Below, in pieces: positions 15,425-41,465 of a stretch of 64,000 nucleotides of DNA (position 1 is the stretch's first letter; every line of letters starts with the position of its first letter). The stretch is from the NCBI GenBank assembly GCA_963779415.1, contig CAVZYA010000001.1, positions 928,001 to 992,000 of the forward strand. The letters are read 5' to 3'. The notes beneath the pieces were generated by a model, which saw nothing but the letters and a program-made list of their open reading frames with translations, had not been told where the DNA came from and ran no database searches. Position numbers and translations under genes: made by a program. The stretch comes from an uncultured Acidobacteriota bacterium. GTDB lineage: Bacteria > Acidobacteriota > Thermoanaerobaculia > UBA5066.

Positions 15425-15666
15425 GACCCTGCGCCTTTCTTTCAGGCTGGTGGACTCTCGACTCTGAGGATCGTCATACCCTCGCCGACAGCGAGTCTCC
15501 CACACACCGCCGCCCCTGACTGTCCCGGGTCGCTTCCTCGAACGCCTCGACCGGAATCGGGAATAGACTTCCCCCAGTAACACGACCCTGACGGGCCGCC
15601 GGATTGAGCGCTGCCGCGCCGGGGGGCACGACCCGCCCCTTCCTCCGACCCGGGGAGGCACTTGGC

Positions 15667-23658: not shown

Positions 23659-26406
23659 TCACTTCCGGCCCGGCTCCGGTGCCCAGTTCAGGACGACGTG
23701 CACCGCGCTCGTCTTCCCGGTACGGTCGTACGTGAGAACCAGGAACTTCGATCCGTCCGGGGCGGGGACGTAGAAGTTCCGGGTTCCACCGGGCGTCGTC
23801 TCTCCCGTCGCCGCGTCGAAGAGCGCCTGCGGGGAGCCGGCCGTGAAGGCCGGCGAGGTCGAGACGGGCACCGCCATCAGCCGCCCGTCCGCCGCGAGAT
23901 AGAAGAGTTCCTTCCCGTCCCGCCTCCAGAGCGCCTGGTCGCCGCCTCCCGATGAGACCTGCCACTTTCCGCCCCCCGGCGGGAACGACTGGACGTAGAT
24001 TTCGGACCGGCCAGTCTCGTCCGAGGTGTACGAGAAGAACCTGCCGTCCGGAGAGAGAGCGGCGTGGGCCTCATTGACGGGCGAGTTCAGGAGCGGGACC
24101 GGCTTCTTGTCCCCGCCGAGGGGAAGCATCCAGAGGTCCATCTGGCTTTTCGGGTTCTGACTCTCCACGAGGATCGCCCGACCGTCCTTCGTCCAGTCGT
24201 CCGGCCACTTGGCCTCGTCGGATTTCCAGACGAGCTCCTCGGCCCCGACGCCTGACGCAGCCCTGACGAAGATGTCCGACTTGCCATTCCGGTCCGACCC
24301 ATAGGCGATCCGCTCGCCGTCCGGGGAAAAAATCGGGCTCGCATCCTCTCCTTTTCCGAACGTCAGGCGCGAGACGGTGTTGCGGACGAGATCGAGCATC
24401 CAGACATTGTTTTCGGCCGTACCACCCGTCGCACCGGCAACGACGCGCTTTCCGTCGGGAGAGAGGTAGAACTCGAGGAACGATCCCGGGGGAAGGACGG
24501 TGTCGAGAATGCGGCCGGACCGGTCCCGGTAAGCCAGCCTCCCGGCAGCCTCGTCGTACTCGCGATAGGCGAGGACGCCGCCGCGTGACGCGGAAAACGG
24601 GGAGTAGGCCGTCGGTCCCGAGTTGCCGACATTGTCGAGACCCTCCGCGACGAGAACGGGCGCTCCCGGAGGCCGATCGCTCTTCAGCTCCATCGGCATG
24701 AAGACGAGCCGGTTGTTCCGGGCGGTCAGGAGACCGCCCGGTTCGGCCCACTGGGCAAGGCCGACGCCCCCGGTGAGGCGGCGCGGCTTCGACGCCCCGG
24801 GCTCCGAAAGGAAGACCCCCCTTCCCTCGTCGCTCACCGCCATGGAGACAAAGAGGAATCTCTTCCCGTCGGGGAGGAAGGACGGCCAACGGTGGCTCGT
24901 CTGCTTCAACTCGTCCGAGAGCTTCGTGGCGGCGACAGGCGTCCCTCCTCGGGCGGAGATCCGGTAGAGCGGGTCGCGGGTCGACGGCGCGAAGAGGATG
25001 ACGTCGTCCGCGCCCCATGCCCCGCCCCGCCCGTCCGGCGCGTCGCAGAGTGTCTGGACTATTCCCGTCGCCACCTCGATGACGACGAGCTTTCCGCCCG
25101 AGAAGAAGCCGAGCGACCGGCCGTCCGGGGACCAGAACGGGAACTTCCCGTTCTCCGCGCCCCGGACGGGCTTCGACGTGCTCTCCGAGAGCGTCCGGAC
25201 CCAGATCCCGCTGGCCTCGTCGGACGCGAAGCCGGTGAAGGCGACCTGCCTCCCGTCCGGCGAGACCGCTAGCGAGAGACCCAGCGTCGTCTTCTCGGGC
25301 AGCGGAATATCGAAGCGGACGAGGCCGAAGGATGACGGCACGGATTGTGGGGCGCGAGCGCGCAGCGCGAGCGCCCCCGCTGCGATTGCCAACGCGGCTG
25401 CAATCGCCCAGGAGAAATAGAGAGACTTTCTGCTCCCTCGCGCAGACACCGCCTGTGCGCTGCGACCTACAGCGGAACGCGGCTCCGCCTGCTCTTCTTC
25501 GAAGGGTAATTGACCGGAGGAGCTCGCCGACGCGCCGAGCTCTTCTTCTATGGCGATCCGCGCATCCCCGATGTCGCGCAGGCGCTGCTTTACGTCCCGC
25601 TGGAGGCATCGGTGCAGCAGCTCTCTCACCTTCGAAGAAACCGGCGCGCGAATCGCGCTCCAGTCCGGCTCCTTCATCAGGACGGCGGCGAGAGTGTCGG
25701 AGACCGTCTCCCCCTCGAAGGCCCGCTTCCCCGTCAGCATCTCGTAGAGAACGCAGCCGAACGCCCAGACGTCCGTCCGCTTGTCGAGCGGCTTTCCGCG
25801 GGCCTGCTCCGGCGACATGTACGCCGCCGTCCCGAGGATCATCCCGGCCGCCGTGGCGCGAGCCGTCAGCGTGGGCGATTTCGTCAGCCCCCCGCCCGAT
25901 CCCCCTTTCGAAGAATCCCCTTCTCCCTCGAACGCCTTCGCAAGACCGAAGTCCAGTAGCTTCACCCTTCCGTCCGGAGTCACCTTGACGTTCGCCGGCT
26001 TGAGGTCCCGGTGGACGATCCCCTTCTCGTGCGCCGCCTCCAGCGCCTCGGCGATCTGACGGCCGTACCCAAGGGATTCCTCGAGAGGAAGAGGGCCGGA
26101 GACGAGTCGCTGCCCGAGGTCTTCTCCCTCGACCAGCTCCATCACGAGCAGATGCCTTCCCCCAATTTCTTCGAATGAGTAGATGGCGGCAATTCCGGGA
26201 TGGTTGAGCGTTGCGAGCATGCGCGCCTCGCGTTCGAACCGCGCTCTCCGGTCCTCATCCTCGAAAAACTCTTCGGGGAGGACCTTGATGGCGACGTCCC
26301 TCCCGAGCCGCGTGTCCTTCGCCCGGTAGACCTCGCCCATCCCCCCGGCGCCGAGGGGCGCTGCGATCTCGTACGAGCCGAGGCGGGTGCCGGGCGCGAT
26401 CGTCAT
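23659..26406 (-). CDS. K5: Ser/Thr protein kinase with TM helix and TolB-like propeller
   Basis: Start MTIAPGTRLGSYE at 26406; HRDLKPAN, DFG, TAAYMSPE; TM LYFSWAIAAALAIAAGALAL. Confidence 0.93.
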   Translation of the reverse strand: MTIAPGTRLGSYEIAAPLGAGGMGEVYRAKDTRLGRDVAIKVLPEEFFEDEDRRARFEREARMLATLNHPGIAAIYSFEEIGGRHLLVMELVEGEDLGQRLVSGPLPLEESLGYGRQIAEALEAAHEKGIVHRDLKPANVKVTPDGRVKLLDFGLAKAFEGEGDSSKGGSGGGLTKSPTLTARATAAGMILGTAAYMSPEQARGKPLDKRTDVWAFGCVLYEMLTGKRAFEGETVSDTLAAVLMKEPDWSAIRAPVSSKVRELLHRCLQRDVKQRLRDIGDARIAIEEELGASASSSGQLPFEEEQAEPRSAVGRSAQAVSARGSRKSLYFSWAIAAALAIAAGALALRARAPQSVPSSFGLVRFDIPLPEKTTLGLSLAVSPDGRQVAFTGFASDEASGIWVRTLSESTSKPVRGAENGKFPFWSPDGRSLGFFSGGKLVVIEVATGIVQTLCDAPDGRGGAWGADDVILFAPSTRDPLYRISARGGTPVAATKLSDELKQTSHRWPSFLPDGKRFLFVSMAVSDEGRGVFLSEPGASKPRRLTGGVGLAQWAEPGGLLTARNNRLVFMPMELKSDRPPGAPVLVAEGLDNVGNSGPTAYSPFSASRGGVLAYREYDEAAGRLAYRDRSGRILDTVLPPGSFLEFYLSPDGKRVVAGATGGTAENNVWMLDLVRNTVSRLTFGKGEDASPIFSPDGERIAYGSDRNGKSDIFVRAASGVGAEELVWKSDEAKWPDDWTKDGRAILVESQNPKSQMDLWMLPLGGDKKPVPLLNSPVNEAHAALSPDGRFFSYTSDETGRSEIYVQSFPPGGGKWQVSSGGGDQALWRRDGKELFYLAADGRLMAVPVSTSPAFTAGSPQALFDAATGETTPGGTRNFYVPAPDGSKFLVLTYDRTGKTSAVHVVLNWAPEPGRK

Positions 26407-29042
26407 TTCGTTCCCTTCAAAGCGGCCGCCCAGTTCGTGACGACGACGACGCCGTCGGGCTCGACGCCCGGCGCACGGCGTATGACGAGGAACCGCTGGC
26501 CGTCCGGGGAGACGTCGTAGGGGAAGAGATGCCAAAGGAGCTCGCCGCTCAGGTCGAACTGAAGGGGAAAGAGGGGCTGCGGCTCGCCGGGCTCCAGCCG
26601 GCCGCTCTCGGGCCGCAGGGCCACCGACATCAGCGTCCCGTCCCGTGCGACATAGAAGAGTTCGGCCCCGTTCCGGTTCCAGACCGGCATCTGCCCCCCG
26701 CCGATCGAGACCTGCCGCAGGGGGCCGTCCGGCACCGGCTGTACGTAGACTTCCCTCTGCCCCGACTCGACCGAGTCGAAGGTGCTCCACCGGCCGTCCG
26801 CCGAGATCGTGGCGTGCTCCTCCGAGAACCCCGATTCGCCGCCCAGGTGTACCGGCTGATTCGGAGCTTCCGGGGAAAGGACCTCCCGGGAATACCGGCC
26901 GGCGGCGAAGACGCTCACGAGCAGGCGCTCTCCGTCGCCGAGGAGCTGCGGGAGCATCTTGTCCTGCCCGGTCCGGGCCAGGACCTTCTCCGACCCCCCG
27001 CCCGCCGGGCGTTCGAAGATGTTGTAGAAGCCGAAGCGGTCGCCGACGTAGGCCACCCGCTCGCTGTCCGGGAACCACGCCGGGTTGAACTCGTCGGCCG
27101 GATCGGGGGTGATCCTCACGCCGGTCCCGCGTGCGGCGTCGAGGACCCAGATGTCGCCGTTCCGTGCGTGGGACGGGTCGCGGAGGGCGACGGCCACCTT
27201 CCGTCCGTCCGGCGAGATCCGGACGTCGATATACCCTGCGACCTCGCCGAGGGTCCCGAGCTCACGCCCTTTCCGGTCCACCCACACGAGACGTCGCTGC
27301 TGCGACCACGATTCGTAGGCAATACGGCTGCCGGCTGCCGAGAGCGAGAGGTAGTTGTCGACGACCGTCCAGTGGACGTTCTCGAAGGCCGGGAAGGGCT
27401 CTCCGAGGAGCCGGAGGCTGCGAGCGTCGAATCGCCAGGCGAGCACCGCGTCATCGCGGCCGAAGAGGAGGTAGCCGGGCTCCGCGTAGACGGCGGAGGA
27501 ATCCGCCGGGAAGAGGACCTTCGTCTCTCTCGAGTCGAGGGAGCCGAGCGCGATCTGCTTCTTCGTAAAGTCGGGGTTGCTCGCAAGGTAGACGAAATGC
27601 CTGCCGTCGGGGAGAAGCCAGGGCTGGTTCTGGTGAACGAACTCGCCGGCGGCGTCGGCCCCGACGGGTCCCGCCACGCCTCCCGACGCCGGAACCTTCT
27701 GAAGGGTACCGCCGAACTCCTTGGCGAAGAGGATCGTGCCGTCGGGGCCCCACGTGCCCCAAACGGCCCCCCCGCTCTCGCAGATCGACTGCGCCGGACC
27801 GCCGTCGGCGCTCATCCGCTTGAGCCTCCCCTCCGCGAAGAAGGCGATCTCCCGGCCGTCCGGCGACCAGAAGCCGCCCCGAGCGTCCTCCGTCCCGGGG
27901 AGGATCCGGAACTCGAGGCTGTCGAGGGGGCGGATCGCGAGCCGGTTCTTGCCTCCGTCGTCCCGGAGAAGCAGGAGAAGGCGCCTCGAGTCCGGGGAAA
28001 GGAGGGCGATGGGCATAAGGTTCTGACCCGGGGGCGCGAGGATCTTGAATCGCGTCCGCTCTCCGGACGGCGTCCCGCCCCGAGACCGGGCGAGGCCGGT
28101 GACTCCGAGCACGAGTGCGAGGGCGGCGACGGCCCACGCGAGCCACTCGCGCCCCGGTCGCCGTGAGGCCGCGGCGGCCGAGCCGGCCCCCGATCCTTCC
28201 CCGATCCACGCGAGCTCCCGGGCGATGTCGCCCGCGCTCTGCCAGCGCTCGTCGGGATCCTTGGCAAGGCAGGTCCTGACGAGACGCTCGAGCGCCGGCG
28301 GCGTCATCGGCTGGATCGTCGAGATCGAAGGGGGATCGCCCGATAGGATCGCCGAGATCAGCGCGGCCTGACTCTTTCCGGAGAAAGCCTTCTTTCCCGT
28401 CACCATCTCGTAGAGGACGGCGCCGAAGGCGAAGATGTCCGAGCGGGCGTCGGCCTCCTTTCCCTCGAGCTGCTCGGGCGCCATGTAGGAAGGCGTCCCG
28501 AGGATCATCCCCTCCCGGGTCACGTCCTTCGCGGACGTCGGGGCCGAGGTGAGGGATTCGACGGCGTCTCTCGTCGTCAGGGACTTCGCCAGCCCGAAGT
28601 CGAGAAGCTTGACGCCCGACGGGGTCACCATGATGTTGCCCGGCTTCAGGTCGCGGTGGACGATCGCCTTTCGATGCGCCGCATCGAGGGCCGAAGCGAT
28701 CCTCTCCCCGAGGCTCAGCGCCTGCCGCAAGGGGAGGGGCCCGCGCGCGATCCGGTCCGCCAGCGTTTCGCCCTCGACCAGCTCCATGACGAGGAGATGT
28801 CTTCCCCCAATTTCTTCGAAGGAGTAGAGGGTGGCGATCCCCGGATGGTTCAGGCTCGCCAGCATGCGAGCCTCTCGCTCGAACCTCTGCCTTCTCTCTT
28901 CATTTTCGAAGAACTCTTCCGGCAGGACCTTCAAGGCAACCGTTCGCCCAAGAAGGGTATCCGTCGCCCGGTAGACCTCGCCCATCCCCCCCGCGCCGAG
29001 GGGAGCCGTGATCCGGTAATGAGCCAGCACCGTGCCGATCAT
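26403..29042 (-). CDS. K6: Ser/Thr protein kinase with TM helix and TolB-like propeller
   Basis: GAGGMG, VALK, HRDLKPGN, DFG, YMAPE; TM WLAWAVAALALVLGVTGLA; ATGA overlap with K5. Confidence 0.93.
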   Translation of the reverse strand: MIGTVLAHYRITAPLGAGGMGEVYRATDTLLGRTVALKVLPEEFFENEERRQRFEREARMLASLNHPGIATLYSFEEIGGRHLLVMELVEGETLADRIARGPLPLRQALSLGERIASALDAAHRKAIVHRDLKPGNIMVTPSGVKLLDFGLAKSLTTRDAVESLTSAPTSAKDVTREGMILGTPSYMAPEQLEGKEADARSDIFAFGAVLYEMVTGKKAFSGKSQAALISAILSGDPPSISTIQPMTPPALERLVRTCLAKDPDERWQSAGDIARELAWIGEGSGAGSAAAASRRPGREWLAWAVAALALVLGVTGLARSRGGTPSGERTRFKILAPPGQNLMPIALLSPDSRRLLLLLRDDGGKNRLAIRPLDSLEFRILPGTEDARGGFWSPDGREIAFFAEGRLKRMSADGGPAQSICESGGAVWGTWGPDGTILFAKEFGGTLQKVPASGGVAGPVGADAAGEFVHQNQPWLLPDGRHFVYLASNPDFTKKQIALGSLDSRETKVLFPADSSAVYAEPGYLLFGRDDAVLAWRFDARSLRLLGEPFPAFENVHWTVVDNYLSLSAAGSRIAYESWSQQRRLVWVDRKGRELGTLGEVAGYIDVRISPDGRKVAVALRDPSHARNGDIWVLDAARGTGVRITPDPADEFNPAWFPDSERVAYVGDRFGFYNIFERPAGGGSEKVLARTGQDKMLPQLLGDGERLLVSVFAAGRYSREVLSPEAPNQPVHLGGESGFSEEHATISADGRWSTFDSVESGQREVYVQPVPDGPLRQVSIGGGQMPVWNRNGAELFYVARDGTLMSVALRPESGRLEPGEPQPLFPLQFDLSGELLWHLFPYDVSPDGQRFLVIRRAPGVEPDGVVVVTNWAAALKGTK
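28810..28928. repeat. 119-bp patch in the K6 N-lobe, repeated at 33119-33237 in K7
   Basis: Manual alignment, 3 mismatches. Confidence 0.85.
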
Positions 29043-29088: not shown

Positions 29089-30580
29089 TCACCGCGCCTT
29101 CTTCCCGCAGGCTTCGGAAAACCCGAGCTGACAGGCCCTGCGGAAGAACTCGACCGCGCGGCGACGATCGCGAGTCACTCCGTTCCCCTTCTCGTAGGCG
29201 ACGCCGAGGTCGAAGCACCCCTCGCCGTCGCCGCCCTTGCAGGCGAGGTCCAGGAAGGAGGCGGCCTTCGCCGCGTCCGGCACCACGCCCGCGCCGGCGG
29301 AGTAGACGGCCGCCGCGTTGAAGCAGCCGAACGAGTCTCCTCTGCCGCACCCGAGCTCCGAAAGCTCGCGGCCCTTCGTCAGGTCCTTCGGAATGCCATC
29401 GCCGGCGATGAAAAGGCCTCCGAGGAGCGAACAGGCACGCGAGCCGTTCTCGGAGGAGTGAACGTCGTCGGGGTTGGGCGTCCGATCGCAGGCCTCCCGG
29501 AAGATGGCGGCCGCACGCGGTTCGTCCACCTCGACGCCGATTCCGTCTCGGTACGCGCGCCCGAGGTTCACGCAGCCGCCCAGGTTCGACGGCTGGCAGC
29601 TCGTGCCCTCGCACCCGCGCCGGTAGAGCGCAACGGCCCGGGACTTGTCCGTCGCGACTCCTCTGCCTTTCTCGTAGAGGAAGCCGAGGTTGGTGCAGCC
29701 GGTCGTGCTGCCGAGGGTGCAGGCCTCCTCGTACCCCGCCACGGCGCGCGCGACGTCGTGGGCGCCACCGCGCCCCTCATCGGCCATGAGCGCCGCGTTG
29801 TAGCACCCCTGCGCGTCGCCGAGGTCGCACGCCTCGTTGTAGAGCGCGGTGGCGCGGTGGTCGTCCTTCTTCACGAACTTTCCCGTTGCATGGAGGAATG
29901 CCAGGTTCGCGCAGCCGGCGCCGCTCCCGAGCTTGCAGGATCGTTCGGCCGCGGCGACGGATTCGCTTCCCTTGTCCGGCTCGTCCATGAGCTGCAGGGC
30001 CTCGTAGGCACATGCCTCTGCGGAGCCGGAATTGCAGGCCTCCTTGAAGAGCTCGAGAGCGCGCGCGACTTTCGGCCCTCCCCGGCGGCTCCAGAGGAGC
30101 CAGCCCTCCCGGAAGCAGGCGCTCGCGCGGCCGTCCTGACAGGCTTTCTCGAGGAGGGCGTCCTGGTCGACCGCAGACAACAGTCACGTCGAATCTCGTT
30201 CCCGCTCGCCACACCGAGACGCGGACGGGACCACACGAGCGGTTGAAGGCGGCGTCGCCGAAGTCGCAGTCGGTCGCGATGTGAGCCGTGCCGATTTCCT
30301 CCACGACGTCGTTCGGGCGGATCTCCGCCGCCTCGGCGGGGCCTCCGGGCCAGACGTCGGTCACGACCGCGCCCCGGAGCTCCTCCGGCAGAGCGAGCCT
30401 CTTCCGGAGCTGCCTCGAGAGGGGGCCGGCGTCGATGCCGAGCGTTCCGAGGCACCGCGCGGCCGCGGCGGGCGGCGAAGGCGCCGGCGCGGAGGAGGTG
30501 CCGGCGCAGCCTGCGGTCAGAACCGCGGCTCCCAAGGCGATTGCCGCGTCAAGCCGTGCCAAAACCCGTCCGGTCCTCAT
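29089..30580 (-). CDS. Lipoprotein with PDZ domain and Cys-rich Sel1-like repeats; one +1 frameshift near 30181 as assembled
   Basis: LTAGC lipobox; GAVVTDVWPGGPAEAAEIRPNDVVEEI (PDZ); ACxLGxxxGCxNLGxLY repeats; ATGA overlap with K7; removing one base gives ...FDVTLSAVDQ... Confidence 0.82.
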
Positions 30581-33360
30581 CGAGCGTCCTTCGTCCCTTC
30601 CCCGGCCCCCAGGCCCTGGCCCCAGTTGAGCGCGATGGCCACCTGACGGCCCTGCGACCCCTCTCTCCGAAACTCGACGAACGCAAAACGCTTTCCGTCG
30701 GACGAGACGTCCCAATTGACGATCGGGTTCGTCCTCCACGAGTACCCCTCGAGCCCTCCGAAGACGAGCTGGGCCGGCCCTGCCCGGAAAGACGGACGCG
30801 TCTCCACATCCACCTTCATCACACGGGAGTTCTGGATGAAGAAGAGCTCGCGGCCGTTCCCGGACCACTTCGGAAACCCTCCGAGGTCCGGCGAAACCTG
30901 CCATCTCGCGTCCCCCTCGAGTGGCCTGACGAAGACAGAGATGCTCCCCGATCCCGCGGCTCCGTTGTAGGCGATGTAGCGGCCGTCGGGCGAGAAGGCG
31001 GGAGCGGCGGCGTCGGGGGCGAAGACGCGGCTCTTGCCGGTCTGTACGTCGACCAGCCGAAGCTCTCTCGCGTTGACGTCCGTGTAGGCGAGAAGCCGGC
31101 CATCGGGGCTCCAGGCAGTCGGAATGACCGCACGGGTTGACGTCTCGCCGATGAGAGTCGCCGAGCCGCTCCCGTCGGCAGGCTTCCGGTGGATTCCCGG
31201 CGACTCGCCCGCCGTCACGACAAAGGCGATCTGCTTGCCGTCCGGGGACCAGACCGGTGCGGCACTGTACTCGTCGAACGTGAGACGGTTTGGCGCCATG
31301 TCGGAGAGCGAGAGCGTCCAGACGTCTCCCGCAAGGCCTCCCCGCCCCTTCCCCACGTTGAAGGCCAGACGCCGGCCGTCCGGCGAGAAGACCGGCGTGT
31401 TGTAGTCCTGCGGCGGCAACGGCAGCCGCGTCGGCTTTCCGCTCCGGTCGATCAGGGTCAGCCAGGACTGGCCCGTCATCGCGCTTCCCGGAACCCAGGC
31501 GAGAGTGCCGTTCCGGGCGACGGAGAGATAGGAGACTCCGCTCGTCGGGTCCCCTCCAAGCTCGCGGAGCACCGGATAGGGCTCCCCCCGGACGGTGGCC
31601 GTCTTCGGATCGAATGCGATCGCAAAGAGGGTCCCGAGACGTACGAAGACGAGCCGGTCGGGCCCCACGAAGCGTGCCGTGCTCGCACCCTTGACGAGCG
31701 TTCGGATCTTGCCTTCGGAGACGACCGCGATGTCGGCACCGTCGTAGTTCTGCGGGCTGTTCTCCCATCCGATCGTGAAGAGGATCCCGGCTCCGTTCGG
31801 CAGGGCCTCGGGCCAGCGGAACGTCCGTTCGTTCTTCTTCGGGTCGGGTTTGGCGAGCTCCATAGGGGCGCCACCGCCCGCCGGAACACGCATGAGGCCT
31901 GAGGCGTATTCCGGCGAATAGACGATCGTGTCGTCCGGCGCCCAGCAGCCTCCGCGAGGCGCCGGCGCGTCGGCGAGCGTCACGGGAATCCCTCCGGACA
32001 GAAGCAGCTTCTTCAGCTTCCCGTCGGCGAAGAAGGCGATCCACTCTCCGTCCGGCGAGAAGAACGGGTTGCTCGCCCCCTCGCTTCCGGAGATGACCGC
32101 GCCGTGAAGCTCCTCGAGCGACCGGAGCACGAGGTGAGAAATGCCGGTCTTTTCGTCGAGGGCCTGCATGACGAGCCAGCGGCCGTCCGCCGAGAGGGCC
32201 ATGTCGGCCACGTCGTCCAGGACGAGCCGCGACCCCTCCGGCAGGGGCACCGTGAAGCGCGTGATCCCCTTCGGCGCGATCTTCGGGGCACGAGCGCGCA
32301 GCGCGAGCGCCCCCGTCGCGGCCGCGAATGCGGCCGCAATCGCCCAGGAGAGATAGAGAGACTTTCTGCTCCCTCGCGTTCGACTCGCAGAAGCGTCGCG
32401 ACCTACAGTGGAACTTGGCGAGGCGGTCTTTTCTTCGAAGGGTAATGGGCCGGAGGAGCTCGCCGACGCGCCGAGCTCTTCCTCGAGGGCGATCCGCGCG
32501 TCCCCGATGTCGCGCAGGCGCTGCTTCACGTCACGCTGAAGGCACCGGTGCAGCAGCTCTCTCACCTTAGAAGAAACCGGCGCGCGAAGCGCGCTCCAGT
32601 CCGGCTCCTTCGTCAGCAACGCGGCCAGCGTGTCGCTGACGGTCTCCCCTTCGAAGGCCCGCTTCCCCGTCAGCATCTCGTAGAGGACGCAGCCGAAAGC
32701 CCAGACGTCCGTCCGCTTGTCGAGCGGCTTGCCGCGCGCCTGCTCGGGGCTCATGTACGCGGCCGTCCCGAGGATCACCCCCGCCGCCGTGGCGCGAGCC
32801 GTGAGCGTCGGCGACTTCGTCTGCCCCCCGCCGCTTCCGCTCTTCTCGTTCGACGAATCGCCTTCGAAGATCTTCGCGAGGCCGAAGTCGAGGAGCTTCA
32901 CCCGCCCGTCGGGCGTGACCTTGACGTTCGCCGGTTTCAGGTCCCGATGGACGATCCCCTTCTCGTGCGCCGCTTCCAGCGCCTCGGCGATCTGCTTCGC
33001 GTATGCGAGTGATTCGTCCAGCGGAAGCGGGCCCGGGACGAGTCGCTGCCCGAGGTCTTCTCCCTCGACGAGCTCCATGACGAGAAGGTGGCGGGAGGAA
33101 GAAGACGAGGACCCGGGGATTTCTTCGAAGGAGTAGAGGGTGGCGATCCCCGGATGGTTCAGGCTCGCCAACATGCGAGCCTCTCGCTCGAACCTCTGCC
33201 TTCTCTCTTCACTTTCGAAGAATTCTTCCGGCAGGACTTTCAGCGCAACGTCTCTACCGAGCCGCGTGTCCTTCGCCCGCCAGACCTCCCCCATCCCGCC
33301 CGCACCGAGGGGGCTCTGGATCTCGTACGAGCCGAGGCGGGTGCCGGCGGCGAGCGTCAA
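30577..33360 (-). CDS. K7: Ser/Thr protein kinase with TM helix and TolB-like propeller (mosaic gene)
   Basis: TTG start at 33360 after GAGGAAG; HRDLKPAN, DFG, TAAYMSPE; TM LYLSWAIAAAFAAATGALAL. Confidence 0.92.
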   Translation of the reverse strand: MTLAAGTRLGSYEIQSPLGAGGMGEVWRAKDTRLGRDVALKVLPEEFFESEERRQRFEREARMLASLNHPGIATLYSFEEIPGSSSSSSRHLLVMELVEGEDLGQRLVPGPLPLDESLAYAKQIAEALEAAHEKGIVHRDLKPANVKVTPDGRVKLLDFGLAKIFEGDSSNEKSGSGGGQTKSPTLTARATAAGVILGTAAYMSPEQARGKPLDKRTDVWAFGCVLYEMLTGKRAFEGETVSDTLAALLTKEPDWSALRAPVSSKVRELLHRCLQRDVKQRLRDIGDARIALEEELGASASSSGPLPFEEKTASPSSTVGRDASASRTRGSRKSLYLSWAIAAAFAAATGALALRARAPKIAPKGITRFTVPLPEGSRLVLDDVADMALSADGRWLVMQALDEKTGISHLVLRSLEELHGAVISGSEGASNPFFSPDGEWIAFFADGKLKKLLLSGGIPVTLADAPAPRGGCWAPDDTIVYSPEYASGLMRVPAGGGAPMELAKPDPKKNERTFRWPEALPNGAGILFTIGWENSPQNYDGADIAVVSEGKIRTLVKGASTARFVGPDRLVFVRLGTLFAIAFDPKTATVRGEPYPVLRELGGDPTSGVSYLSVARNGTLAWVPGSAMTGQSWLTLIDRSGKPTRLPLPPQDYNTPVFSPDGRRLAFNVGKGRGGLAGDVWTLSLSDMAPNRLTFDEYSAAPVWSPDGKQIAFVVTAGESPGIHRKPADGSGSATLIGETSTRAVIPTAWSPDGRLLAYTDVNARELRLVDVQTGKSRVFAPDAAAPAFSPDGRYIAYNGAAGSGSISVFVRPLEGDARWQVSPDLGGFPKWSGNGRELFFIQNSRVMKVDVETRPSFRAGPAQLVFGGLEGYSWRTNPIVNWDVSSDGKRFAFVEFRREGSQGRQVAIALNWGQGLGAGEGTKDAR
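32291..32462. repeat. 172-bp juxtamembrane+TM patch of K7, repeated at 35076-35247 in K8
   Basis: Manual alignment, 1 mismatch (32399/35184); a diverged third copy lies in K5 at about 25352-25530. Confidence 0.9.
33257..33345. repeat. 89-bp identical 5' patch of K7, repeated at 36036-36124 in K8
   Basis: Manual alignment, no mismatches. Confidence 0.9.
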
Positions 33361-33370
33361 GCGGTCTTCC

Positions 33371-36139
33371 TCATCGCGTGCACCTCGCGCGGTCGACGCC
33401 GGCAACGCCCTGGGCCGTCATGAGACTCGAGACCTGCTCCCATTCCGCGAGGCAGATCTTCTTCCCGTCGGGCGAGATCGCGAAGGTCTCCGCTACCCAG
33501 TCCGGTTCGAGCCCGGCGAGGGGCCGGCGCGTGGACGCCGTGTCCCGCCCGGGCACGAAATCCTGGGCGAAGATCCCGACGCGCCCCTTCGCGTCGACGG
33601 AGACGAATGCGATCGCCTTGCCGTCGGGCATCCACCGGGCACGGCCCGCGATCTGCTCCACCCGCCGGGTCGTGGCTCCCAGCCGGATCGAGAACGGCAG
33701 GAGCGTTCCATCCGAAATGCGGACGACCTTGACCGCGCTGTCCTCCGTCAGGCGCGCGAACGTGAAGAGCGCGTACTGGCCGTCGGGCGAGACCTCGGGC
33801 CATTCTCCGAGGCCGGAAAAGAGGATCGCCGGCTCGCTGCCGTCGGGCCGGACCTTCCAGATACCGAATTTCTTCCGATCCCCCGAGGCATAGATGACCC
33901 ACTCTCCGCCGGGCGTGGCCGTCGCGTTCTCGGCGTCGACACCGTCGTGCGTGACCTGCCGAGCCCCGCTCCCGTCGGCGTCGGCCATCCAGATCTCGAA
34001 GTTACCGGAGCGGTCCGAGCTGAAGACCAGGTGCTTTCCGTCGGGCGTCAGCGCGGGGTCGTAGTCCACCGAAGGGCTGTCCGTCAGCCGCCGGACGGCG
34101 CCGGTACGCGGCTGGAGACTCCAGACGTCGACGTTTCCGCCGCGAAGGGCCGAATAGACGATCCACTCCCCGTCGGGCGAGTACCGGGGCTGGCGGTTCA
34201 TCCCGAGCCCGCGAGTGAGCCAGACATCCGGCGCCCCGGCGCCAGCGCCCGCCACCTCTCGCAGGTTCACCCGGTTCGAGCTGACGTCGAAGACGAGGTG
34301 TCCGGGGCCCAGCACGTCGACCGCCGAGACGCGGCTCGGACTCTCGAGCACGGGAGACTGCCCTCCCGTCTCGGAGTCCATCCGCTCGATCGTGCAGGCG
34401 GCGGCTTCGAAGAGGCTCAGCACCGGCGAGACCCGCGCGAGCAGGATCTCGCGTCCCGTCCCCATCCAGACGGCCGAGGAGATCTCCGCGGAGCGCCCGG
34501 CCCCGAGGTCGCGCGTCGCGCTTCCGTCGCTCGCCACCAGGACAGGTCCGGCGTAGGCGGCCGCGCCCAGCGAATGCGGAAAGCAGACGATCCATTTCCC
34601 GTCCGGCGACCAGGCGGGCCAGTCGAACGGCACGGTCGTGGACCGGTAGATCTCGCGCGGCTCTCCGCCGTCGGCCGAACCGACCGTGAGCGCCCAGAGC
34701 TGTCGCCCTTCCTCTTTCCCTTCTCGGACCCATGCGAGCCGCCGTCCGTCGCACGACCAGGCGCCGTCGGTCGCGTTGGCGACGAGCCGCCTCGGCTCCC
34801 CTCCGAGGACGCCGACCCGGTAGAGCGAGGAGACCGCGTCTTCGCGCCGGACGAAGAGAAGGGAGGTTCCGTCGGGAGAGAAGCGCGGCCGGTCGTCCGG
34901 TCCCGACGTCAGCGGCCGCTCGTCACCGTCCGGCATCTGCTTGAGCCAGATCCGGTCCCGACCGTCCCGGTCGGAGACGAAGGCGACGAGCTTCCCGTCC
35001 GGCGAGGCGGCGGGAAACCAGTCGTGACCGGAATCGGTCAGCGGCTGCACGACGAGTGGCTGCGGCGCGGGGGCGCGAGCGCGCAGCGCGAGCGCCCCCG
35101 TCGCGGCCGCGAATGCGGCCGCAATCGCCCAGGAGAGATAGAGAGACTTTCTGCTCCCTCGCGTTCGACTCGCAGAAGCGTCGTGACCTACAGTGGAACT
35201 TGGCGAGGCGGTCTTTTCTTCGAAGGGTAATGGGCCGGAGGAGCTCGATGCACCCGCCGCGCTCATTTCCTCCAAGTCGACGCGCGCGTCGCCGATGTCC
35301 CGCAGCCTCAGCTTCGCGTCGCGCCTCAGGCACTTTCGAAGAATCTCTTTGACTTTCTCCGGCGTTTCCGCCGGCAGCGCGCTCCAGTCCGGCTCCTTCG
35401 TCAGCAACGCGGCCAGCGTGTCGCTGACCGTCTCCCCTTCGAAGGCCCTCTTCCCCGTCAGCATCTCGTAGAGGACGCACCCAAAGGCCCAGACGTCGGT
35501 TCGCTTGTCGACGGTCTTCCCCCGGGCCTGCTCCGGCGACATATACGCCGCCGTCCCGAGGATCACCCCCGCCGCCGTCGCGCGGGCCGTGAGCGTCGGT
35601 GAGTGTGTGACAGAAGGGGCAGAGCCGGGCCCGCCGTCCCCCTCGAAGATCTTCGCGAGGCCGAAGTCCAGAAGCTTCACCCTTCCATCCGGCGTCACCT
35701 TGACGTTCCCGGGCTTGAGGTCCCGGTGGACGATCCCCTTCTCGTGCGCCGCTTCCAGCGCCTCGGCGATCTGACGGGAAAGAGAAAGATATTCTTCGAG
35801 GGGGATGGGACCGGAGAGCAGCTTCTGAGCAAGATCCTCACCTTCGACGAGCTCCATCACGAGAAGGTGGCGCGAGGAAGAAGACGAGGATCCGGGGATT
35901 TCTTCGAAGGAATGGATGGCCGCGATCCCCGGATGATTGAGGCTCGCGAGCGTGCGTGCTTCGCGCTCGAAGCGGGCGACGCGGTCTTTGTCTTCGAAGA
36001 ATTCTTCCGGCAGCACCTTGATCGCGACGTCTCTCCCGAGCCGCGTGTCCTTCGCCCGCCAGACCTCCCCCATCCCGCCCGCACCGAGGGGGCTCTGGAT
36101 CTCGTACGAGCCGAGGCGGGTGCCCGCGGCGAGGCTCAT
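33371..36139 (-). CDS. K8: Ser/Thr protein kinase with TM helix and TolB/PD40 propeller of the K2 type
   Basis: Start MSLAAGTRLGSYE at 36139; HRDLKPGN, DFG, TAAYMSPE; ectodomain LTDSGHDWFPAASPDG...SSDRSGN. Confidence 0.92.
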   Translation of the reverse strand: MSLAAGTRLGSYEIQSPLGAGGMGEVWRAKDTRLGRDVAIKVLPEEFFEDKDRVARFEREARTLASLNHPGIAAIHSFEEIPGSSSSSSRHLLVMELVEGEDLAQKLLSGPIPLEEYLSLSRQIAEALEAAHEKGIVHRDLKPGNVKVTPDGRVKLLDFGLAKIFEGDGGPGSAPSVTHSPTLTARATAAGVILGTAAYMSPEQARGKTVDKRTDVWAFGCVLYEMLTGKRAFEGETVSDTLAALLTKEPDWSALPAETPEKVKEILRKCLRRDAKLRLRDIGDARVDLEEMSAAGASSSSGPLPFEEKTASPSSTVGHDASASRTRGSRKSLYLSWAIAAAFAAATGALALRARAPAPQPLVVQPLTDSGHDWFPAASPDGKLVAFVSDRDGRDRIWLKQMPDGDERPLTSGPDDRPRFSPDGTSLLFVRREDAVSSLYRVGVLGGEPRRLVANATDGAWSCDGRRLAWVREGKEEGRQLWALTVGSADGGEPREIYRSTTVPFDWPAWSPDGKWIVCFPHSLGAAAYAGPVLVASDGSATRDLGAGRSAEISSAVWMGTGREILLARVSPVLSLFEAAACTIERMDSETGGQSPVLESPSRVSAVDVLGPGHLVFDVSSNRVNLREVAGAGAGAPDVWLTRGLGMNRQPRYSPDGEWIVYSALRGGNVDVWSLQPRTGAVRRLTDSPSVDYDPALTPDGKHLVFSSDRSGNFEIWMADADGSGARQVTHDGVDAENATATPGGEWVIYASGDRKKFGIWKVRPDGSEPAILFSGLGEWPEVSPDGQYALFTFARLTEDSAVKVVRISDGTLLPFSIRLGATTRRVEQIAGRARWMPDGKAIAFVSVDAKGRVGIFAQDFVPGRDTASTRRPLAGLEPDWVAETFAISPDGKKICLAEWEQVSSLMTAQGVAGVDRARCTR

Positions 36140-36176
36140 CGAATGCACGACATGTTCATGCAACACGATCGGCCGG

Positions 36177-38870
36177 TCACCGGGCCGTCTCCCCGCGCGC
36201 GCGCCGCTCGAGCTCGCCCCGCCAGCCGAAGACCATGTTGATCCGGGTGATCGGGCTCACCGCCTCGGCATTCCGGATGAAGAAGAAATGTCTGCCGTCC
36301 GGCCCGACCTCGTAATACCTGCCGGACTCGTAGCAACCGCATGAGAGGATCCGCTCGGGCAGCCCAGCCGAAAACGCGTGGGCCGTGTCGACCGGCACGC
36401 GCATGAGTCGGTCGCCGTTCAGGTAGAACAGCTCCCGCCCGTCCCGCGACCATTCCGGACGGACGCCCCCATCCGTCGAAATCTGCCACTTTCCTCCGGG
36501 CCCCGGGAAGGGACGGACGTAGATCTCGCTCCGGCCCGATTCATTGGACTCGTAAGCGAGGAAGCGTCCGTCGCGCGAGAATTCCGCGAACCATTCCCGG
36601 AAGGGGGTCCGCTCGAAAGGGGTGGGCTTGCGATCCCCTTCCATCGGGAGAATCAGGATGTCGAAGCCGGTCGTCGGGTCCAGCTCGCCGAACGCCAGGT
36701 AACGGCCGTCGGGAGACCACGACGTGGGGTAGATCCAGTTTCTGCTCGTGAGCAGCTGCTCCTCCGTACCGCTCCCATCGGCGGCTCGCCAGTAGAGGCC
36801 GTAGAGACCGTTGCGGAGGGACGTGTAGACGAGACGCTTGCCGTCGGGCGTCCAGATGGGGTCGCGGTCGTCATTGTCGAACGTCGACCGCGTCAGGGTC
36901 CCCCGATCGCGGTCGAAAATCCAGATATTCCAGGTTGCACCTTCGACGGTCATGGCGAGCCGTCGCCCGTCGGGAGAAAGAGACATGTCCTCGTAGGCGG
37001 AATCTTCTGCCGCGAGCGTCGCGGCCTCACCCTTCAGATCCAGCATGACAACCCGCCTCTTGACGGCCGCGCGGGTTCGAGGCACGTAGGCGAGCAGGCC
37101 GCTTCTCGAGACGGCGAACTGCTCGATCCCGAAGTCGTCGTCGGGCATGACCTTCTCGACGAACGGGACCGGCTCGCCGAGCAGTTTCAAGCCGTCCGGG
37201 TCAAACGGCGCGGCAAGGATCGCTCCCGAGCGGCCAAAGACGAGGAATCCCGGCTCGACGTAGTGGGGATTCGTGCCCTGGGGGACGATCACCTGCGACT
37301 TGCCGGTCCTGAGGTCGAGCGCCTCAATCTGGCCCTGGCTCGCCTGGAAGCCTCGGACGCTCGTGAAGAGCAGAGCCCGCACCATGGGGAGGGCTTCGGG
37401 CTCGAAGATGTCGCCCCGAGCGGGGTCGGCTTTCACGATCTCCGGACACGCTCCACCCGCGACCGACGCCTGCAGCAATCCTCCGGTCGTCGACGGCAGG
37501 AAAATGCTTCCGTCATCGGCCCACGCGGCCCCTGCGTAGTCGGACACCTGAGCGTCGCAGACCGGCAGGGACGGCCCACCCGACACCGCCACCTTCCGGA
37601 CCCTGTTGCCGGCCGTGTACCCCAGCCACTGGCCGTCCGGAGAGAAGAACGGTCTTGCCGCTCCATCTGTCTCCGCGAGAGGCGTTGCCTCAAACGAACC
37701 GATGGAGCGCACGTAGAGCGAGGAGGCCCCGGACTCGTTCTTCGCGACGTAGGCGACCCGGGCGCCGTCTCGCGAGACGGCGAGATTCGGTACACCGTCG
37801 ACTGGAAGCGCTTGTCCTCGTGGGAGGTCGAGGCTCAGGCGAACGACGGAAACCGCGGCCGGCCGGTGCGAAAGCCGTTCGAACCATCCCGCAACGAGTG
37901 CGCCGCCAAGAACGAGTCCGACGAGGCCCGCCGCCGCCGTCCGACGCATTCGAGAGCGCGAATCGGCCGGCCCGATTGCCTTGCCGCCCGACTCGCCGAC
38001 AGCCGCCGGTGAGTCCATCAGGCTGAGGCGCGCGTCGGCAATGTCGTGGACGCGCAGCCGGACGTCCTTTTCCAGGCAGCGCTTGAGGAGGCCACGGATC
38101 CCCGGCGGAGTTGTCGCGGCGAGAATCGACCAATCCGGCTCGGCACGCAAGACCGCCGCGAGCGTGTCGGAGACGGTCTCCCCTTCGAAGGCCCTCTTCC
38201 CCGTCAGCATCTCGTAGAGCACACAACCCCACGCCCAGATGTCCGCCCGCTTGTCGACCGTCTTCCCACGCGCCTGCTCGGGCGACATGTATGCGGCAGT
38301 TCCGAGAATGACGCCGGCGGCCGTGGCACGCGCCGTCAGCGTCGGCGACTGCGTGACGGCCGCCCCCGAACCGGTCGTCGAGCCCCGGTCTCCTTCGAAC
38401 GCCTTCGCAAGGCCGAAGTCGAGCAGCTTGACCTTCCCGTCTTCGGAGACTTTGACGTTCGCCGGCTTCAGGTCCCGGTGGACGATCCCCTTCTCGTGCG
38501 CCGCCTCCAGGGCCTCGGCGATCTGCTTCGCGACAGAAAGAGATTCGTCGAGTGGAAGGGGACCGGGGACCAGCCGCTGCCCGAGGTCTTCTCCCTCGAC
38601 GAGCTCCATGACGAGGAGATGTCGACCGGAGATTTCTTCGAAGGAATAGACGGCCGCAATGCCGGGATGGTTCAGCGTGGCGAGCGTGCGCGCTTCTCTT
38701 TCGAAGCGGAGCCTTCTCTCTTCATCCTCGAAGAACTCTTCCGGCAGCACCTTGATCGCGACGTCCCGCCCGAGCCGCATGTCCTTCGCCCGGTAGACCT
38801 CGCCCATCCCTCCCGCGCCGAGGGGGGAGAGGATCTCGTAGGCGCCGAGGCGAGTGCCGGCGGTGATCAC
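36177..38870 (-). CDS. K9: Ser/Thr protein kinase with TM helix and TolB-like propeller
   Basis: GTG start; HRDLKPAN, DFG, TAAYMSPE; TM AAAGLVGLVLGGALVAGWF. Confidence 0.93.
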   Translation of the reverse strand: MITAGTRLGAYEILSPLGAGGMGEVYRAKDMRLGRDVAIKVLPEEFFEDEERRLRFEREARTLATLNHPGIAAVYSFEEISGRHLLVMELVEGEDLGQRLVPGPLPLDESLSVAKQIAEALEAAHEKGIVHRDLKPANVKVSEDGKVKLLDFGLAKAFEGDRGSTTGSGAAVTQSPTLTARATAAGVILGTAAYMSPEQARGKTVDKRADIWAWGCVLYEMLTGKRAFEGETVSDTLAAVLRAEPDWSILAATTPPGIRGLLKRCLEKDVRLRVHDIADARLSLMDSPAAVGESGGKAIGPADSRSRMRRTAAAGLVGLVLGGALVAGWFERLSHRPAAVSVVRLSLDLPRGQALPVDGVPNLAVSRDGARVAYVAKNESGASSLYVRSIGSFEATPLAETDGAARPFFSPDGQWLGYTAGNRVRKVAVSGGPSLPVCDAQVSDYAGAAWADDGSIFLPSTTGGLLQASVAGGACPEIVKADPARGDIFEPEALPMVRALLFTSVRGFQASQGQIEALDLRTGKSQVIVPQGTNPHYVEPGFLVFGRSGAILAAPFDPDGLKLLGEPVPFVEKVMPDDDFGIEQFAVSRSGLLAYVPRTRAAVKRRVVMLDLKGEAATLAAEDSAYEDMSLSPDGRRLAMTVEGATWNIWIFDRDRGTLTRSTFDNDDRDPIWTPDGKRLVYTSLRNGLYGLYWRAADGSGTEEQLLTSRNWIYPTSWSPDGRYLAFGELDPTTGFDILILPMEGDRKPTPFERTPFREWFAEFSRDGRFLAYESNESGRSEIYVRPFPGPGGKWQISTDGGVRPEWSRDGRELFYLNGDRLMRVPVDTAHAFSAGLPERILSCGCYESGRYYEVGPDGRHFFFIRNAEAVSPITRINMVFGWRGELERRARGETAR

Positions 38871-41464: not shown

Positions 41465-41465
41465 G

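Follow-up and report, generated by a model that had tools for sequence, protein, structure and literature searches.

One kinase-transmembrane module in front of many extracellular propellers in a tandem Ser/Thr kinase array of an uncultured Acidobacteriota bacterium

A 64,000-nucleotide (nt) stretch of DNA from an uncultured Acidobacteriota bacterium of the class Thermoanaerobaculia, referred to as the window (G000:C1:928001-992000), contains ~14 genes for receptor-type Hanks Ser/Thr kinases (denoted K1 to K14) that lie head to tail, mainly on the minus strand. Three of them, K5, K7, and K8, belong to one clade and share a module of kinase, linker, and transmembrane (TM) helix ending in ...SWAIAAAFAAAxGALALRARAP, termed the “chassis”. 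Directly after the proline of this motif, each continues into a different extracellular domain (ectodomain). The chassis and the ectodomain have different histories, and the chassis is younger than its sensors. The arrangement is probably the result of short-tract gene conversion that homogenizes the 5′ module in front of old sensors, with a near-identical tract of K7 and K8 as the latest patch at the edge of homology.

The source genome is labeled G000, related genomes are numbered from G001 onward, and database proteins are designated P00xx. The genome spans 4.36 Mb in 3 contigs with a completeness of 92%, and the GC content of the window is 68%. In the public sequencing runs that match the genome (7 runs from 4 studies), the share of sampled words is at most 0.16. 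Kinase domains are abundant, with 73 kinase-domain stretches in 70 open reading frames (ORFs) of the whole genome. The family bears the marks of a lineage-specific expansion with domain shuffling, namely many recent paralogues of the kinase module and sensory parts that are not congruent with them.

All three chassis genes of the window are on the minus strand. K5 (23659-26406) encodes 915 amino acids (aa) from MTIAPG..., with RARAP at residues 349-353. K7 (30577-33405) is an ORF of 942 aa with RARAP at 370-374, and K8 (33371-36166) encodes 931 aa with RARAP at 362-366. The true start of K7 probably lies further in because the TTG that opens the ORF overlaps the stop of K8 by 35 nt. In each gene of the array, a cytoplasmic kinase is followed by a disordered linker, a single TM helix, a short tether, and an outer propeller of ~570 aa. 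All seven proteins scanned (K5, K7, K8, K2, K9, K6, and K10) contain the Pkinase domain (PF00069; 159-174 bits against a cut-off of 31.7, E 6e-51 to 2e-46) and PD40 (PF07676; E 1e-50 to 4e-12), the values for K7 being 8e-50 and 3e-28. The catalytic motifs, namely the Gly-rich loop, VAxK, HRDLKPxN, DFG, and (A/S)PE, are all found in the translations of K5, K7, and K8 (for example, AYMSPEQ), and these motifs are kept in 17 chassis genes. A single hydrophobic helix lies 44-45 residues past the kinase, with a best 19-aa hydropathy window of 1.62-1.89 in the three proteins, which presumably adopt the N-in orientation of receptor kinases. An AlphaFold model of K8 from an 8-row alignment (mean predicted local distance difference test score, pLDDT, 69.9; predicted template modeling score, pTM, 0.39) places a linker of low confidence (residues 305-339), a helix (340-362), a tether of likewise low confidence that reaches 371, and an all-beta region (373-919) behind the kinase.

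The ectodomains, ~570 aa in length, are all of the tandem PD40/TolB-like propeller class. TolB is the best solved relative (E 4.7e-16 for K7 and 2e-20 for K8), with a match confined to ectodomain residues ~290-470, so that the fold of the N-terminal half is not covered by a sequence match. The preliminary description of this DNA, made from the letters alone, had called the ectodomains of K7 and K8 dissimilar. This is correct for their sequences, which share 25% identity over 423 aa (E 3e-7) at the level of the repeat only and out of register, but the two are members of one class. The closest match of the K8 ectodomain in this genome is that of K2 (43% over 567 aa, E 7e-152), all other ectodomains reaching at most 26%. 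The K7 ectodomain is 35% identical to those of K3 and K4, and the third type, carried by K5, is nearest to that of K11 (42%).

The border between chassis and ectodomain is sharp. On the minus strand, K7 positions 32462-32285 and K8 positions 35247-35070 are identical at 176 of 178 bases without a gap, and both copies end at the Pro codon that closes GALALRARAP. The translation of the tract (...SSSGPLPFEEKTASPSSTVG(R/H)DASASRTRGSRKSLYLSWAIAAAFAAATGALALRARAP) runs from the C-terminal half of the linker through the TM helix to RARAP. One mismatch, at 32399/35184, exchanges Arg and His, and the other, at 32290/35075, is synonymous. An earlier reading of 172 shared base pairs (bp) with 1 mismatch is borne out as part of this tract, and its coordinates of 32291 and 35247 arose because the 172 bp stop ahead of the second mismatch. 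The abrupt switch after the TM helix that had been proposed is likewise real. In successive 60-nt windows across the junction, identity between K7 and K8 runs 100, 100, 87, 58, 28, and 25%, and similarity reaches chance level within a few bases, with no gradual decay.

Near-identity in this tract exceeds what is seen along the rest of the chassis, synonymous sites included, as expected of gene conversion. K7 and K8 differ at 188 of 1065 aligned chassis positions, and no stretch with 2 or fewer differences is longer than the 178-nt tract; when the differences were shuffled, 0 of 5000 trials reached 178, the maximum being 93. At identical residues, the fraction of identical codons is 69% in the kinase, 95% in the linker, and 92% in the TM helix and junction. 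The tract is 99% identical between K7 and K8 and only 81% and 78% identical to the respective orthologues; for the roles of donor and recipient, comparison with the orthologues gives 78-81% in either direction.

The remainder of the K7 chassis is a patchwork. Near-identical patches were located by a nucleotide search with a high mismatch penalty, as an identity-filtered megablast ran over the whole 83% region. Between K7 and K8, with K7 coordinates counted from where the kinase domain begins, the patches lie at 1-98 (99%), 214-281, 352-407, 623-758, and 884-1061 (98.9%); in the intervening stretches, identity is 38-70%. The first of these, at the kinase-domain start, is the second long K7/K8 patch (97/98 nt; K7 33248..33345, K8 36027-36124, minus strand). 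K7 also shares 99/104 nt with K5 (K7 32642..32745, K5 25706-25809, minus strand) and 116/119 nt with K6 (K7 33119..33237, K6 28810-28928, minus strand). Since K6 and K7 are of different kinase clades, conversion in the array is not limited to the chassis clade. In 75-nt windows, the nearest paralogue of K7 is in turn K8, K6 (96-99%), K8, K9, K5 (95-96%), K8 (97-99%), K5 (92-96%), and K8 (99-100%), so that several donors are visible along one gene. Because the K7 chassis is a patchwork nearest to K8, K6, K9, and K5, the 178-nt tract is a recent short gene-conversion patch that reaches the edge of homology and not the scar of a sensor insertion.

Short-tract exchange is common among array members. 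Among 55 genes of G000 and the first relatives, a search for tracts of 90 nt or longer with at least 95% identity found four, all in G000 (K7/K8 twice, K5/K7 once, and K6/K7 once), of which one K7/K8 tract ends at the junction. Among 34 genes of G041, G057, G059, and G060, for which the length threshold was 80 nt rather than 90 nt at the same identity, nine were found, and three of these, belonging to G057 and G059, stop no more than 2 nt from the junction. Together, 4 of the 13 tracts from five genomes end at the junction and 9 end inside the kinase.

The chassis occurs with many other sensors. The 29-nt junction DNA GGGGCGCTCGCGCTGCGCGCTCGCGCCCC, which encodes GALALRARAP, is carried in identical form by K5 (25349..25377, minus strand). 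The 20-nt junction DNA GCGCTCGCGCTGCGCGCTCG has three sites in the genome at up to 2 mismatches, namely K5, K7, and K8, and among the kinase ORFs of the genome RARAP is found in these three only. The observation that K5 joins the same GALALRARAP to a third ectodomain was accurate, its linker-TM DNA being 82% identical. With K7 residues 316-378 as the query, 66 proteins out of 753 candidates were obtained, the database relatives being named as metagenome-assembled genomes (MAGs) of Thermoanaerobaculia or Acidobacteriota. With 26 chassis-clade genes from the genomes, the set comprises 92 proteins, of which 76 fit the junction pattern. Clustered at 40, 50, and 60% identity, their ectodomains form 18, 24, and 25 groups, respectively, which supports a common chassis joined to many sensor domains.

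The constant and variable parts meet at an invariant motif. Across 23 representatives of the ectodomain types, mean pairwise identity is 75-100% over the last ten residues up to the Pro and falls to 6-20% immediately beyond it. The pattern used to select the proteins included columns -6 to 0, which makes the 100% identity there partly circular; the free observations are columns -20 to -7 and the drop itself.

The chassis clade is present in two genera of Thermoanaerobaculia. When the 191-nt linker-TM DNA was searched, multiple copies per genome turned up in 6 of the 7 other genomes from this genus and in all 4 that were sampled from the second genus; outside these two genera, the matches were short and marginal only. 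Overall, 21 of 41 genomes match, with the unpublished G030 counted in; nothing else depends on G030. A degenerate 29-nt GALALRARAP pattern (at most 1 mismatch) is found in 29 of 63 genomes of the family, distributed as 5/7 in genus g1, 21/29 in g4, 2/17 in g2, and 0/9 in seven other genera. Up to 7 chassis junction copies occur per genome, and single 29-nt matches may be chance because a reversed control gave 0-2 per genome.

The separate histories of chassis and ectodomain are apparent from phylogenetic trees. Of 78 complete kinase-TM-ectodomain proteins, 34 belonging to this genome and 44 to loci of relatives, the 63 with a propeller ectodomain were kept and 15 of other types were dropped. 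In the kinase tree, K5, K7, K8, and K9 fall in a clade of 26 rows with a Shimodaira-Hasegawa-like approximate likelihood ratio test (SH-aLRT) support of 100. Placed on the ectodomain tree, the chassis label changes 10 times, and branches supported at 95 or above force six or more of these changes. A count this low was reached in 0 of 500 shuffles, yet the label is still scattered. The K8-type ectodomains form a 100% clade with those of K2 and G019_C18_32885/G024_C8_333068, whose kinases sit elsewhere. G006_C89_9485 has a K10-type ectodomain, and the ectodomain of G019_C18_35608 pairs with that of G024_C8_335797. Monophyly of the chassis-bearing ectodomains is rejected (log-likelihood difference 1197, approximately unbiased (AU) test p-AU 3e-30; 25 rows, LG+G4). 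A side observation from a further array is G041_C19_294701 (L049), in which a K11-clade kinase and TM helix precede a sensor type that is linked to the chassis in at least 6 other genes (for example, G024_C8_314130 and G057_C1_2315416), and which is a further re-association.

The individual fusions are old. The K7 ectodomain is 81% identical at the nt level to that of its orthologue G002_C4_50890, with 74% in the kinase region. For K8 and G010_C230_5956, which is from the other genus, the values are 85% and 73%, and for K5 and G007_C34_11131 they are 85% and 81%. Given these ectodomain orthologues in other genomes, the combinations in K5, K7, and K8 predate the split from the related genomes, which leaves without support the proposal that a sensor was plugged in at the K7/K8 tract. 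Paralogues in the window are 78-83% identical in the kinase region, rising to 95% in the linker-TM portion of K7 and K8. By the nt identity matrices and DNA AU tests, it is only the converted part that is closer between paralogues than between orthologues, the DNA tree of the kinase region rejecting the three ectodomain orthology groups with p-AU of 7e-4, 0.012, and 0.0012. A sliding comparison of K5 with its G007 orthologue gives 62-72% over ~220 nt ahead of the junction and 83-95% past it. This pattern mirrors that of K7 and K8 and is an independent exchange tract with the same endpoint.

These observations are best accommodated by gene conversion within the array. Short tracts exchanged between array members, with or without unequal exchange, would spread and homogenize the 5′ module. 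Where the copied paralogue bears a different sensor, a tract could extend 3′ only as far as homology lasts, to the Pro codon at the outer face of the membrane, and tracts forced to stop there would pile up, the 178-nt K7/K8 tract being the most recent such patch. On this reading, the sharp step separates a homogenized module from old sensor modules that do not align with one another. The junction also coincides with a structural boundary, at which the TM helix ends and an unstructured tether of 2-12 residues begins, and chimeras joined at the helix end would be likely to fold. Selection on the TM and juxtamembrane protein sequence would then hold the inner side constant. Such selection is suggested by how well the Ala-rich helix and RARAP are kept over 18 or more sensor types. 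Helix-helix packing through small-xxx-small motifs may be what constrains the helix, and the Pro after Ala-x-Ala may prevent cleavage by signal peptidase.

Several points weigh against gene conversion as the full account. Homologous conversion alone leaves unexplained how the chassis arrived on sensor lineages of other kinase clades (K2-type and K10-type); microhomology of the GC-rich Ala/Leu/Arg TM ends, such as the ...VRRAPAP of the K11 clade, may have mediated this step. The protein tree of the kinases does not reject the ectodomain orthology groups (p 0.078, 0.34, and 0.13), for which reason concerted evolution rests on the DNA tree and the identity matrices, and AU tests are rough on a mosaic gene that has no single tree. 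The 25 rows of the monophyly test were picked after the ectodomain tree had been seen, and tree groups were partly named once the trees were known. The 99% identity of the tract depends on a single assembly. Finally, the four of 13 tracts that abut the junction and the exact 29-mer, present in 22 of 66 listed junction copies from 29 genomes, are also expected from a preferred site of exchange.

Such a site is the substance of an alternative that is unlikely but has evidence to commend it, in which the TM-end DNA encoding GALALRARAP is a preferred or dedicated crossover joint for repeated sensor exchange, like the junction motifs of polymorphic toxins. It would account for the same junction standing ahead of 18 to 24 ectodomain clusters, for the fall in identity within one residue in 23 types, and for the six or more independent re-associations that are required. 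It also agrees with the sister pairs of chassis and non-chassis genes, in which ectodomain homology starts 2-12 residues past the Pro, and with G024_C8_335797, in which just AGALALRARAP of the chassis remains behind a different kinase and linker.

The DNA of the junction, however, is not specially conserved. Synonymous codon identity over the last ten codons has a mean of ~0.69 in 17 chassis genes, inside the range of conserved kinase windows in the same genes (0.49-0.82), which rules out a specially protected element and leaves a dedicated DNA crossover site unsupported. At identical residues, codons are identical in 61% of cases in the kinase, 63% in the linker, and 67% in the TM helix and junction between genomes (121 pairs), and in 65%, 71%, and 71%, respectively, within genomes (15 pairs). 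In these 17 genes, codon identity gave no conservation of the junction beyond its flanks. Without a locally protected element, the exact 29-mer reflects the youth of the whole chassis, and the GC-rich junction is simply a run of Ala, Leu, and Arg codons in a 68% GC genome. A separate codon peculiarity lies just ahead of the TM helix, where GSRKSLYLSW (K7 ~32343-32372; the same in K5 and K8) is encoded with CGA, AGA, TCT, and TAT, which are rare for the family. These codons are modal in 8-11 of the 17 chassis genes (from 8 genomes), and the stretch is richer in AT than its surroundings.

Breakpoints are also not confined to the junction. Besides the nine patches that end within the kinase, divergence lies inside the TM helix in P0053 and P0050/G004_C6_54574, and the exchange in G024_C8_335797 itself ended mid-TM. 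Sharing of the kinase alone, with similarity ending at the kinase/linker border, is seen in K9 and in the pair G019_C18_13607/16354. K9 (36177-38870, minus strand) is of the same kinase clade as K5, K7, and K8 (77-80% aa identity) and has an unrelated linker and TM helix. The common chassis with many sensors that had first been proposed is upheld, with one fixed residue and separate trees, while the GCGC-rich tract as a special, recurrent crossover point is not.

A bolder form of the crossover proposal, in which the TM-end motif and its 29-nt tract are the recombination joint of a sensor-diversification system that reassorts a constant kinase and TM helix with a library of periplasmic propeller sensors, each exchange beginning or finishing at the joint, is improbable. 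If true, it would be the receptor counterpart of the constant/variable junctions of polymorphic toxins, and P0058 and P0066 would be donor cassettes. Orphan cassettes, with a junction and no kinase, were not found in G000, where all RARAP ORFs have a kinase, and in four further arrays the sole junction ORF without a kinase match still has kinase C-lobe sequence upstream. P0058 (602 aa) and P0066 (621 aa) are gene calls that start in the linker and have no kinase, either as orphan cassettes or through an upstream frameshift. By eye, the ectodomain of P0058 is nearly that of K7, and its TM helix resembles that of K5 (AAALAVATG, against AAAFAAATG in K7); a scan with P0066 returned only relatives of 64-75%. 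A tetratricopeptide repeat (TPR) protein with the linker, P0005, was considered as a new architecture and rejected as a frameshifted fusion ORF.

A history without any exchange, in which one ancestral gene was duplicated and the ectodomains diverged rapidly under diversifying selection while purifying selection held the kinase and TM helix, is very unlikely. The ectodomains are indeed alike in length and propeller class, and the TM helix and RARAP are kept at the protein level over two genera. The ectodomains are nevertheless not fast-evolving, as those of orthologues are more alike (81-85%) than the kinases (73-81%). Nor would divergence from a single ancestor group K8-type, K10-type, and G019_C18_35608-type ectodomains with ectodomains from other kinase clades, and the near-identity of K7 and K8 at synonymous sites cannot stem from selection on the protein.

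An artefact of assembly or polishing, such as a consensus carried between similar neighbors, or a mixture of strains can scarcely be the source of the tract, since unique sequence flanks both copies in a 2.18-Mb contig, two real differences lie within it, the chassis-plus-ectodomain architectures of K5, K7, and K8 recur in independent assemblies, and tracts that abut the junction are present in other genomes, even though the relatives are MAGs, the genome of the window itself is in 3 contigs at incomplete recovery, and contigs of relatives often break in the chassis. Contigs of related assemblies start or stop within it at G019:C18:4-50, G001:C58:1-381, G005:C56:339-502, G006:C433:140-307, and the end of G019:C19, and the chassis is for this reason an assembly-breaking repeat. 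One relative's contig stops in a run of Gly codons just past the start of the TM helix, which looks like a poly-G read artefact. The chassis gene at 303065 of G024:C8 (L020) loses its frame exactly in the G-run that opens the junction 29-mer (...AAAAGGGGPGRAARSRP...) and is either a pseudogene or the product of an indel error. The relatives, mostly MAGs, contain frameshifts (G002 and G059).

The other kinase genes of the window surround the chassis genes on both sides. K1 (3664-6375) is followed by K2 (6372-9065, minus strand), which is of another kinase clade with ~60% aa identity to K7 and K8 and bears the ectodomain nearest to that of K8. K3 (15604-18399) and K4 (18463-21195) are on the plus strand. 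K6 (26403-29042) has a kinase of a clade different from that of K7. Between K6 and K7 are two small genes, at 29089-30180 and ~30180-30560 (both minus strand, placed by eye from translations), one of which appears Cys-rich with Sel1-like repeats and the other a small lipoprotein-like gene with a PDZ-like stretch. K10 (38867-41485) precedes an ORF of 1904 aa (41466-47180, minus strand) that holds K12 and then K11 in fused form. The activation-loop region of K12 and the C-terminal part of its ectodomain are out of frame, and K12 is therefore either a pseudogene or affected by sequence errors. K13 (~48298-49271, minus strand) is a split remnant between K12 and K14, with a kinase domain divided between two ORFs that overlap and cover query residues 1-179 and 185-279, respectively, and no ectodomain behind it. 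K14 occupies 49283-51874.

The locus shows at base-pair resolution how one signaling output module is kept uniform beside many extracellular sensors, with the outer face of the membrane as the border between concerted and independent gene halves. The end of the TM helix with its tether of 2-12 residues is a natural, repeatedly used fusion point, which is useful for constructing chimeric sensors and for probing the role of the conserved Ala-rich helix. Current knowledge would not have led one to expect that a single-pass TM helix is so extremely conserved in front of 18 or more sensor types, nor does it indicate the ligands of ~570-aa PD40 propellers in an uncultured class. In the full-text literature covered, which lies outside subscription journals, no account of this kinase family or of a fixed post-TM junction in bacterial Ser/Thr kinases was found.

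As general principles, both the shuffling of domains in kinase families that have expanded and conversion between tandem paralogues are established. For two-component genes with many paralogues, gene conversion has been mentioned as a possibility (PMC4603909). Histidine kinases have undergone lineage-specific expansion with domain shuffling by a mechanism that the authors leave open (Alm, Huang and Arkin 2006, PMC1630713). The present array is similar in having paralogous kinases in one lineage, a conserved kinase module with varied sensory parts, and no need for transposons. It differs in that the kinases are of the Hanks Ser/Thr type, the sensors are C-terminal, extracellular, and all PD40 propellers, the switch occurs at one fixed residue past a strongly conserved TM helix, and the conversion tracts are visible in the nucleotides.

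Concerted evolution by short-tract gene conversion is a general principle in tandem arrays of paralogues. The mosaic identity, the closer relation of paralogues within a genome than of orthologues, and the tracts of 100-200 nt conform to it. Unlike in the usual case, only the 5′ 1.1 kb of each gene is homogenized, up to an in-frame border of heterology, so that concerted evolution in one half of the gene goes along with independent evolution in the other. Polymorphic toxin loci, such as those of contact-dependent growth inhibition (CDI) and Rhs, consist of a constant N-terminal part, a conserved junction motif, and a variable C-terminal domain, with recombination thought to occur at the border. 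The array resembles them in its constant N-terminal part and short invariant motif followed by different C-terminal parts, and departs from them in that no orphan cassettes were found, the motif has no extra DNA conservation, the variable parts are sensors of one fold rather than toxins, and there are no immunity genes. Mycobacterial PknD, a single gene, combines a kinase, a TM helix, and an extracellular beta-propeller of the NHL type. The receptors described here likewise join a Hanks kinase through a single TM helix to an extracellular propeller sensor, but their propellers are PD40/TolB-like and their genes form an array with a shared chassis.

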